From Escherichia phage WPEC6, in the sequence record PV763039.1: 64,000 nt of DNA, one strand, 5' to 3'. The notes below the pieces were generated by a model. The model had not been told where the DNA came from. It did no database searches and saw only the letters and a list, made by a program, of their open reading frames with translations. Shown here one piece after another: positions 28,443-30,105 of the stretch. The translations under genes were made by a program, and so were the position numbers. Positions within the stretch are counted from its first letter, which is position 1; the number at the start of each line of letters is the position of its first letter.

Positions 28443-29009
28443 ATGAAAGTAGAAAAAACAAAAATTGAAGGTGCGGTAATTATCAAACCAGATGTTTATA
28501 AAGATGATCGTGGTTTCTTTTTAGAAACATACAATGAACAAAAATACGAAGATATCATTGGTAAACAAACTTTCGTTCAAGATAATATGTCTAAATCAAA
28601 CTTCGGTGTTTTGCGAGGAATGCACTTTCAAACAAATAACCCGCAAGGTAAGCTTGTTCGTTGTGTAAGTGGAGAAGTATTGGATTTCGCTGTAGATTTA
28701 CGTAAAGATAGTCCAACTTACGGTGCTTGGGACGGTGTTGTTCTTCGTGCACGACACCATACGCAGTTTTGGCTTCCTCCTGGTTTGGCACATGGTTTTA
28801 TAGTTTTGAGTATGGATGCGATCTTTGAATACAAATGCACAACTCCATACGACCCTTCTAGTGAACAAAGTTTACGTTGGGATGATCCTGACATAGGGAT
28901 CGATTGGGGCTTCGATATGATTTTTGACGAAGGTTTTAAACCTATTTTATCAACAAAAGATGCAATGGCTAAATCTTTTCAACAGTTACGTAGCGAGGGT
29001 GTATGCTAA
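28443..29009 (+). CDS. rmlC: dTDP-4-dehydrorhamnose 3,5-epimerase
   Basis: 188 aa; recalled RmlC cupin pattern (DDRGFF...GMHFQ...); overlaps rmlD start. Confidence 0.8.
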   Translation: MKVEKTKIEGAVIIKPDVYKDDRGFFLETYNEQKYEDIIGKQTFVQDNMSKSNFGVLRGMHFQTNNPQGKLVRCVSGEVLDFAVDLRKDSPTYGAWDGVVLRARHHTQFWLPPGLAHGFIVLSMDAIFEYKCTTPYDPSSEQSLRWDDPDIGIDWGFDMIFDEGFKPILSTKDAMAKSFQQLRSEGVC

Positions 29010-29845
29010 CATATCTGGTATTGGGTGGTAATGGACAACTGGGACAAGCTTTACGTAAAGTGGTTCCTTCAAATGTATCTTTAATTTATCCTAAAGAACG
29101 TGTAGATATTACAAATTTTGAAGCTGTGCGAAACGCTATTGTTGAAGATTATGTAGACGGTGTTATTAACTGCGCTGCTTATACGGCTGTAGATAAAGCG
29201 GAACATGATTTTGCTACTGCTTTGGCTGTTAATGCGTATGGACCTGCAAATATTGCGGCAGTGTGCAGCAAACTTAAAATTGATTTTGTGCATATTTCTA
29301 CAGACTATATTTTTAATTATTCTCATCCTATTTTTGAAGATACTACACCTAACCCAATAAACAATTATGGGTATACGAAAGAACTTGGTGAAAAAATGGT
29401 GCGAGGAGTTAACCCAAATGCATATATTATTCGAACAGCCTCAGTATATAGCGAATTTGGAAATAACTTTCTAAAAACGATGTTGTCTCGCTATAATGAT
29501 GGACAACGTGATTTTATTATTGTTGCTGATCAGTTCTCTTGTCCAACATATGCTCCAGATTTAGCAGAAGCTATTTTTGAAGTATTAAAAACAGGTTGGT
29601 CAAGGTCTGTTAAGACTTACCATTTTGCAGGAAGCCATTTTATTTCTTGGGCGGAGTTTGCGGAAAAGATCTTGACACAGATGCCAGAACCTGTTAAGAT
29701 ATCGGCGGTATCAGCTTCAACCTATAATGCTCCAGCAGCACGTCCGGTGAAGTCACAACTAGTAACCAGTCACTATCTTACAAAATCAGATTTAAATAAA
29801 GGTATTGAACAGTCTTTAGCAGTATTACTTAATAAGGAGAGGTAA
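29003..29845 (+). CDS. rmlD: dTDP-4-dehydrorhamnose reductase
   Basis: 280 aa; N-terminal Rossmann LVLGGNGQLG; RmlD-like length and layout. Confidence 0.75.
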   Translation: MLTYLVLGGNGQLGQALRKVVPSNVSLIYPKERVDITNFEAVRNAIVEDYVDGVINCAAYTAVDKAEHDFATALAVNAYGPANIAAVCSKLKIDFVHISTDYIFNYSHPIFEDTTPNPINNYGYTKELGEKMVRGVNPNAYIIRTASVYSEFGNNFLKTMLSRYNDGQRDFIIVADQFSCPTYAPDLAEAIFEVLKTGWSRSVKTYHFAGSHFISWAEFAEKILTQMPEPVKISAVSASTYNAPAARPVKSQLVTSHYLTKSDLNKGIEQSLAVLLNKER

Positions 29846-30105
29846 TGGAATTTGTAATTTTTGGTAAACCTAACTGTCAATTTTGCGAAATGTCAAAACA
29901 ACTATTAACCATGCGCAATAAACAGTTTGAATATTTAAGTCTTGATCAAGACTATGATTTAGAATCAATGACTAAAACAGTTGTTGATCTTACCGGAGTT
30001 CCTCCACGCACATTTCCACAAATTCTATCTGAAGTGAACGGGGAGGTAACATACGTAGGCGGTTTTACCGAACTGCGTGATCTCATGGCTCAAATTGCGG
30101 AGTAA
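29845..30105 (+). CDS. glutaredoxin-like protein (T4 NrdC-like)
   Basis: CQFC active site; C-terminal GGF..LR pattern as in phage NrdC glutaredoxins. Confidence 0.75.
   Translation: MEFVIFGKPNCQFCEMSKQLLTMRNKQFEYLSLDQDYDLESMTKTVVDLTGVPPRTFPQILSEVNGEVTYVGGFTELRDLMAQIAE

Follow-up and report, generated by a model that had tools for sequence, protein, structure and literature searches.

The genes for dTDP-L-rhamnose synthesis in large virulent coliphages have been called 'peculiar' in the literature, where they are tied, speculatively, to DNA glycosylation only. In the phages phAPEC8, ESCO5, ESCO13, ukendt, Schickermooser and Ro121c4YLVW, the full locus reads nrdA-nrdB, four small open reading frames (ORFs), rmlB-rmlA-rmlC-rmlD, a glutaredoxin gene (grx), a 49-aa ORF, lysozyme and phoH, and phi92, from the sister genus Justusliebigvirus, has the same full rml order. 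A shorter form with rmlC and rmlD only is already known as a multiply deposited deletion variant of this operon, and it has been remarked in passing that RmlA and RmlB are missing from ESCO37 (PMC10269720). Here, the rmlC, rmlD and grx genes of Escherichia phage WPEC6 were analysed in a stretch of 64,000 nt (record PV763039.1), which as a whole is referred to as the window and in which rmlC is preceded by neither rmlA nor rmlB. Taken as a whole, the explanation that we consider rather likely is that rmlC and rmlD are the intact remnant of a deleted operon, fed by the host and in turn feeding glycosyltransferases (GTs) of the phage.

The window was assigned by its sequence to Phapecoctavirus (Stephanstirmvirinae), that is, to a virulent E. 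coli myophage of ~150 kb. Its rml region is 100% identical to that of the deposited phages WPEC1, WPEC2 and WPEC4 and 96-99% identical to ~60 further records, and the genes of this region carry annotation in >60 public records; as a sequence finding, the locus is ordinary, having been deposited and annotated many times already. A literature search on the WPEC phages found none, and the 2025 genus paper on Stephanstirmvirinae makes no mention of rml or glycosyl genes. A scan of IMG/VR with RmlC returned only 2 loci, which do not suffice for an analysis of populations; the comparison therefore drew on GenBank phage records, with Mt1B1_P17 (a 151-kb genome with the same rml arrangement) as the close relative for comparison. 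The locus consists of the following features:

28431-28442, plus strand: deletion scar, identified by junction comparison, made of the stop codon of a small upstream ORF and a hybrid ribosome-binding site, TAAGGAGAGAAA
28443-29009, plus strand: rmlC, dTDP-4-dehydrorhamnose 3,5-epimerase, 188 aa (PF00908, TIGR01221)
29003-29845, plus strand: rmlD, dTDP-4-dehydrorhamnose reductase, 280 aa (PF04321, TIGR01214)
29845-30105, plus strand: glutaredoxin/NrdC-like redoxin, 86 aa, with a CQFC motif (PF00462, PHROG 22)

An earlier note on this DNA, written from the letters alone, had called RmlC, RmlD and a glutaredoxin at this place, with an overlap of 7 nt between the first two genes. All three ORFs were found, their families were confirmed by Pfam and NCBIfam, and the overlap reads ATGCTAA (29003-29009). 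RmlC matched PF00908 with E=7.8e-67 (224.6 bits) and exceeded the TIGR01221 equivalog cutoff (155.75) with 225.3 bits, aligned over positions 1-174 of the 176 in the model, and the solved structures closest to it are RmlC enzymes (E about 1e-55). When the catalytic His (RGxHxQ) and Tyr (YKxT) and the conserved Lys (KLVR) and Asp (SxKD) were taken as criteria, the corresponding motifs of the phage protein, RGMHFQ, YKCT, KLVRC and STKD, aligned with those of solved RmlC proteins and of K-12 RfbC. RmlD matched PF04321 with E=2.8e-73 and retains the GxxGxxG motif and the Thr/Tyr/Lys triad, as equivalents of K-12 RfbD G7, G10, G13, T104, D105, Y128 and K132; its solved relatives 3sc6 and 1vl0 (E about 1e-44) keep the same catalytic residues in the alignments.

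The third protein scored 38.1 bits on PF00462 (cutoff 22.9), with CQFC as residues 11-14, and matched PHROG 22, 'thioredoxin domain', with E=2.6e-16; it lies under the cutoff of every NCBIfam glutaredoxin model. The rmlD stop and the grx start share 1 nt (TAATG), and a Shine-Dalgarno (SD) sequence precedes both the rmlD and the grx starts, that of grx being AAGGAGAGG. The proposal that this glutaredoxin is a partner of ribonucleotide reductase (RNR), donating electrons to the class Ia enzyme of the phage, would fit the relatives, where grx ends the nrdA-nrdB block, and in all relatives compared it is the gene that closes the nrd/rml block.

The absence of RmlA and RmlB, also put forward from the letters alone, was borne out by tblastn, which gave no match to either in the 64-kb window. 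With ESCO5 RmlA as the query, the best E value was 0.058 in the window and 0.14 in 150 kb of the 151-kb Mt1B1_P17 genome. ESCO5 RmlB produced, in the window and in the same 150 kb of Mt1B1_P17, only a weak cross-match to rmlD (28% identity, E=3e-4), which is the similarity expected among short-chain dehydrogenases. No rmlA is annotated in iGC_PHA_EC001, a complete genome of the same rmlCD-only type (hereafter, deletion type, as opposed to the full type with four rml genes). A 197-aa 'nucleotidyltransferase' was considered as a substitute for RmlA and dropped, having no Pfam or NCBIfam match.

Judged by gene order, the Stephanstirmvirinae started out with a complete dTDP-L-rhamnose operon and have long conserved it, because the order seen in phi92 is also kept in two metagenomic relatives whose RmlC proteins are 83% and 57% identical, and because RmlB and RmlA of ESCO5 score above their equivalog cutoffs. 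Recent capture of rmlCD from E. coli was ruled out, since the identities to RfbC and RfbD are 46% and 32% and the operon is conserved down to the relative with the 57%-identical RmlC. As even the closest cellular RmlC proteins (Pectobacterium, Serratia and Klebsiella) are only 56-60% identical, rmlC and rmlD are, by these comparisons, long-resident phage genes.

Among the Phapecoctavirus records, 64 contained rmlCD at an identity of at least 95%, and only 43 contained rmlBA at an identity of at least 90%; the upstream flank typical of the rmlCD-only state was present in exactly 21 of the 64, about one third. The deleted segment, rmlB-rmlA, measures 1876 bp. Full types read ..GGTAAGGAGAACTGATG ahead of rmlB and ..GCGGAGAGAAAATG ahead of rmlC, and deletion types read ..GGTAAGGAGAGAAAATG ahead of rmlC, with the same junction in all 10 sequences compared. 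Therefore, the crossover took place within the GGAGA common to the ribosome-binding sites of rmlB and rmlC, and a strong SD stands ahead of rmlC after the deletion. One recombination between the two SDs would have removed rmlBA exactly. The identical junction, together with a private single-nucleotide polymorphism located 70 nt upstream of the rmlC start and common to all deletion types (10 sequences), suggests that the loss of rmlBA was a single event.

The deletion types do not form a clade in the rmlCD distance matrix: ECML-183-2, a deletion type, is only 4 nt away from the full type ESCO13, and the full type ESCO5 falls among the deletion types. From this we infer that the deletion allele moved between backgrounds by homologous recombination, through which it would have spread after its single origin; recombination between ESCO5 and ESCO37 has been documented in the laboratory (PMC10269720).

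All 17 rmlCD sequences were full length, without stops or indels, and the 10 deletion-type sequences differed by up to 39 nt with no inactivating mutations among them. The ratio of non-synonymous to synonymous differences per site (pN/pS) was 0.03 for rmlC and 0.12 for rmlD in deletion types and 0.02 and 0.10, respectively, in full types, values that do not strictly report selection after the deletion, as deletion-type polymorphism is largely shared with full types through recombination. The variants private to deletion types comprised 19 synonymous and 9 non-synonymous changes, versus a ratio of ~1:3 expected without constraint. In the sequences compared, rmlC and rmlD thus show no decay.

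The earlier note had reasoned that the phage would need dTDP-4-keto-6-deoxyglucose from the host. This part of its interpretation stood as reasonable and host dependence as plausible, whereas the status of rmlC and rmlD as the remnant of an operon had escaped it. According to annotation, the K-12 operon for enterobacterial common antigen (ECA) encodes a second RmlB and a second RmlA, named RffG and RffH, whose product dTDP-4-keto-6-deoxy-D-glucose is taken by WecE. DNA of rffG-rffH was detected in 5309 of 5426 complete E. coli genomes (about 98%). K-12-like rfbC was detected in 2348 of the 5426, a count to be read as a lower bound because the sensitivity of blastn falls near 65% identity. The strains without detectable rfbC, more than half of E. 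coli, probably cannot make dTDP-L-rhamnose themselves. Because rffG-rffH is near-universal, the first two phage enzymes would be redundant in nearly every host, and the last two would be non-redundant in roughly half of the hosts because rfbC is undetected there; with such a pattern of redundancy, the rmlBA deletion can therefore spread while rmlCD stay intact.

In the pathway that we propose, host RffH and RffG from the ECA pathway, and in some hosts also RfbA and RfbB, would make dTDP-4-keto-6-deoxy-D-glucose, phage RmlC would epimerise C3 and C5, and phage RmlD would reduce C4 to yield dTDP-L-rhamnose. From the genes present on both sides, such host-fed synthesis by an rmlCD-only phage is plausible. 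In a less certain step, dTDP-L-rhamnose would then feed a cluster of four GTs in the replication module, outside the window.

These four consecutive annotated GT genes lie beside primase/helicase and DNA polymerase genes at 87378-90522 of iGC_PHA_EC001, and their equivalent in Mt1B1_P17 is at 45046-48190. All four matched glycosyltransferase PHROGs strongly; their Pfam matches, to GT1/GT4, were weak (sub-threshold or borderline), and none gave a significant match to PDB sequences or NCBIfam. An FDDD motif is invariant in the second GT of the cluster (GT2), and the best structural matches to its confidently predicted structure (predicted local distance difference test, pLDDT, 87.7) were GT-A glycosyltransferases, e.g. 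STIV A197 and TarP. The third (GT3) was found in 145 phage records, including a WPEC sibling of the window, and the tallies of GT3 and rmlCD by organism name largely agree, with 106 Escherichia, 5 Campylobacter, 3 Phapecoctavirus and 3 Justusliebigvirus in both. Considering these sequence matches and tallies, the four-GT cluster is probably the consumer of dTDP-L-rhamnose, although this is less certain than the preceding steps.

Besides the shared polymorphism that limits the use of pN/pS, several observations weigh against this explanation. In a genome of normal order, ~70 kb separate the GT cluster and the rml genes. RmlD clears the TIGR01214 equivalog only narrowly (239.1 bits versus a cutoff of 224.05) and is below the cutoff of the enterobacterial-type model NF007440 (118 versus 308); by its sequence, it may be a C4 reductase that yields 6-deoxy-L-talose, not L-rhamnose. 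Independent erosion of rml genes is seen elsewhere among the isolates: KKP 3954 (locus L020, 2623-3617) has its rmlB split in two coding sequences (CDS), rmlCD is 1 nt shorter in P3322 (PV191315), where rmlD is annotated as two CDS, and rmlBA is partially deleted in DIJ07P2 (OZ035771) and Eryne (PQ529420). Some of these cases may be sequencing errors; taken as they stand, they imply that the pathway is accessory and dispensable, at least in culture. In the window, finally, no promoter-like site was found between rmlC and a terminator-like hairpin that lies upstream of it and is described below.

The rival explanation that survives best, and which we still consider unlikely, takes rmlCD for a dead end: the two genes would have been useless since the loss of rmlBA and would be intact only because the loss is recent and because they are re-imported from full-operon phages. 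RmlC and RmlD of the window share 100% and 98.9% identity, respectively, with their counterparts in full-operon ESCO5, so that little time may have elapsed, and the intermixing of deletion and full types in the distance matrix would allow for such re-import. The erosion of rml genes in other isolates points in the same direction, as does the presence of the deletion allele in about one third of the records, by which the loss of half of the pathway is not strongly deleterious. Against a dead end, up to 39 nt of divergence has accumulated among the 10 deletion-type sequences with no inactivating mutation, and the variants private to them are skewed to the synonymous side, 19 to 9. Moreover, a strong SD was left at rmlC and translational coupling was preserved, deletion types have kept the GT cluster, and the enzymes are not stranded, as about 98% of E. 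coli would provide their substrate.

Other proposals concern the use of the sugar. In one of them, the four-GT cluster would place a rhamnose glycan on virion proteins, comparable to the 'glycan shield' of mycobacteriophage Che8, and the rmlCD-only variants would tap the host ECA precursor and thereby deplete the wecB-dependent receptor glycan. We regard this combination as quite unlikely to be right in full; within it, phage DNA or a host envelope glycan are less likely targets than the virion.

The idea that the genes serve to manipulate the host envelope is, in our opinion, very unlikely. Here, dTDP-4-keto-6-deoxy-D-glucose would be pulled away from the ECA precursor dTDP-Fuc4NAc or from O-antigen, or dTDP-L-rhamnose would inhibit host RmlA/RffH by feedback. 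The proposed benefit would be an altered set of surface glycans, e.g. for superinfection exclusion or to prevent re-adsorption, and a feedback block would instead spare dTTP. Its appeal comes from the dependence of these phages on wecB, which has been read as ECA being the primary receptor (PMC8594841), from the annotated position of the RmlC substrate at the branch point that feeds WecE in the ECA operon, and from the feedback inhibition of RmlA by rare dTDP-L-sugars described in PMC10375476. However, full-operon relatives also encode RmlA and RmlB, which would add flux and consume dTTP, not merely divert an intermediate, and the four-GT cluster suggests that the sugar is used and not just accumulated. 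Because of the wecB dependence (PMC8594841), diversion of the ECA precursor would be an intriguing side effect of host-fed rhamnose synthesis.

The hypothesis in print is that of Olsen et al. 2020 (PMC7552041), who proposed DNA glycosylation by analogy with the glucosyl-hydroxymethylcytosine (glucosyl-HMC) of T4; dTDP-L-rhamnose would then be the donor for glycosylating modified bases of the phage DNA. The position of the rml genes within a nucleotide-metabolism module, between RNR and its redoxin, and a divergent ThyX-like gene nearby are in line with it. GT2 also scored 19.5 bits (E=1e-3) on the TET-associated glycosyltransferase family PF20691 and matched phrog_842 (beta-glucosyl-HMC-alpha-glucosyltransferase) with E=7.6e-6, but the first score is below the cutoff of 27.5 and the second match is weak and covers only ~40 residues; the fold search with GT2 returned generic GT-A enzymes. 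DNA glycosylation is disfavoured, and we hold it to be highly improbable, because restriction-modification systems are reported to act on these phages with unusual efficiency (PMC8594841) and because neither a TET/JBP nor a ThyA-type hydroxymethylase for dCMP or dUMP is annotated in the complete deletion-type genome iGC_PHA_EC001, where only the divergent ThyX-like protein was found.

The context upstream of rmlC has to be read with care. Compared to Mt1B1_P17, the window is a series of shuffled blocks with joints near 2283, 5036-5044, 28210-14, 60626-60886 and 62264. The segment 5036-28214 corresponds to Mt1B1_P17 from 116802 down to 93622, reversed, 28210-51293 corresponds to 116800 up to 139884, and 62264-64000 continues from 93619. 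The features displaced or interrupted in this way around the rml genes are:

5642-6727, minus strand: nrdB, 361 aa (ORF, named through the Mt1B1_P17 annotation)
6772-9012, minus strand: nrdA, 746 aa (ORF, named through the Mt1B1_P17 annotation)
28181-28214, plus strand: terminator-like hairpin with a T-run, CCCCTCTCCGAAAGGTTAGGGGCTTTTTT, which comes from the block with the tRNA genes and a 297-bp ORF and ends at the artificial junction
28210-28433, plus strand: 3' remnant, by its match to Mt1B1_P17, of a conserved small ORF (327 bp) normally found ahead of the rml genes, severed at the block junction

The join at 28210 severs the 327-bp ORF, which is intact ahead of the rml genes in Mt1B1_P17 (116697-117023), and puts the hairpin and a tRNA cluster ahead of rmlC. 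The nrdAB genes, the natural upstream neighbours in relatives, sit ~20 kb from rmlCD in the window, displaced and inverted. The block that starts with ATTTTAACTGG has four different left neighbours in the window, WPEC1, WPEC2 and WPEC4; in WPEC2, the natural order nrdB-small ORFs-rmlC is present minus ~7 nt at the joint, with the base corresponding to window position 5045 joined directly to that at 28210. The sibling records WPEC1, WPEC2 and WPEC4 measure 155-161 kb and consist of 100% identical sequence, with the same block ends joined differently. Because identical block ends have different partners and few bases are lost, a pattern that fits neither recombination nor an invertase, the WPEC records seem to be contigs strung together in no particular order and submitted as 'complete genomes'.

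The sequence to the left of 28210 was almost certainly joined to the rml block by a contig error, which makes the local transcription context unreliable, also for the co-transcription with grx that the earlier note had put forward; the terminator ahead of rmlC probably reflects misassembly. As in every relative, rmlCD-grx almost certainly follows nrdAB in the genome of the phage itself. The product of an inversion or an invertase at 28210 was ruled out, as the ends at 5036 and 28210 share no repeat of >9 nt, inverted or direct, and the siblings bring the number of partners to four.

Two further observations concern these blocks. Among the early genes, a repeat of 18-24 nt, GTAGGGCGGCAATGGTGCCGCTCA, adjoins several of the joints (about 2283, 5036 and 62264). 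It probably represents a regulatory hairpin that recurs in the early transcription units, and it is likely to have caused tangles in the assembly graph. The tRNA cluster (25702-27627, plus strand) contains 10 genes, for Met, Arg, Ser, Asn, Thr, Gly, Gln, Pro, Ile and a second Met, and relatives annotate two extra pseudo-tRNAs within this block.

Other genes of the window were also recorded. On the minus strand, a 332-aa 'thymidylate synthase' (9789-10787), which adjoins an NT5C-like deoxynucleotidase (10797-11405, minus strand), showed a weak ThyX/Thy1 match of 33 bits and reached 31 bits on TIGR02170, where the cutoff is 88; this protein may modify pyrimidines in a non-canonical way. A gene at about 49693-50364 (minus strand), equivalent to 140898-141569 of iGC_PHA_EC001, is annotated as 'DNA invertase' in one record and as 'methionine ABC transporter ATP-binding protein' in another. 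On the plus strand, a PhoH-like ATPase (30755-31564) and an HslV/proteasome-like peptidase with a weak Pfam Proteasome match (32100-32792) are found just downstream of the lysozyme gene, and both are kept in all relatives.

The deletion types can be regarded as a natural and informative mutant, since about one third of the Phapecoctavirus isolates have lost rmlBA and keep rmlCD and the GT cluster. Natural pairs of full and deleted phages make the use of rhamnose directly testable. These phages are popular candidates for therapy, and glycosylation of the virion or a change in the host surface would, if true, be of practical relevance.

Among known systems, the rmlBACD operon of Phapecoctavirus and Justusliebigvirus (phAPEC8, ESCO5 and phi92) occupies the same locus, with the same flanks, as the rmlCD-grx genes of the window on their downstream side. 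Identity to the RmlC and RmlD of phi92 is about 63% and 54%, respectively, versus the near identity with ESCO5, and the difference from this operon is the loss of rmlB-rmlA between two SDs. The rmlCD-only isolates ESCO37, Mt1B1_P17, ZCKP1, anhysbys, nepoznato, ECO340P1 and WPEC1/2/4 have an identical junction and rmlCD identities of 97.6-100%, and the window differs from them only in its upstream context, where the tRNA block takes the place of nrdB and the small ORFs.

The bacterial RmlC and RmlD enzymes (K-12 RfbC/RfbD and those with solved structures) belong to the same families as the phage proteins and have the same catalytic residues. The chemistry expected would also be the same, i.e. 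3,5-epimerisation followed by 4-keto reduction of dTDP-4-keto-6-deoxy-D-glucose, whereas the phage genes have diverged from rfbC and rfbD to the extent given above and do not lie inside an O-antigen cluster.

For the GTs, a low and partial similarity was found with those of cluster F mycobacteriophages, to which GT2 is 25-28% identical over ~130 residues. The cluster F1 phages Che8 and Rita, closely related to the mycobacteriophages matched by GT2, carry glycans on the major capsid protein (PMC11256854). In contrast to these, the Stephanstirmvirinae have a Gram-negative host and glycosylation of their virions is hypothetical; conversely, no report of a nucleotide-sugar pathway in the mycobacteriophages was met with here, unlike in the rml-bearing phages. 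DNA glucosylation in T4 by alpha- and beta-glucosyltransferases is likewise a glycosyl transfer encoded by the phage among replication and nucleotide-metabolism genes (an analogy drawn in PMC7552041). In the phages studied here, however, no hydroxymethylase was found by annotation, the donor would be a dTDP-6-deoxyhexose versus the UDP-glucose of T4, and the phages are sensitive to restriction.

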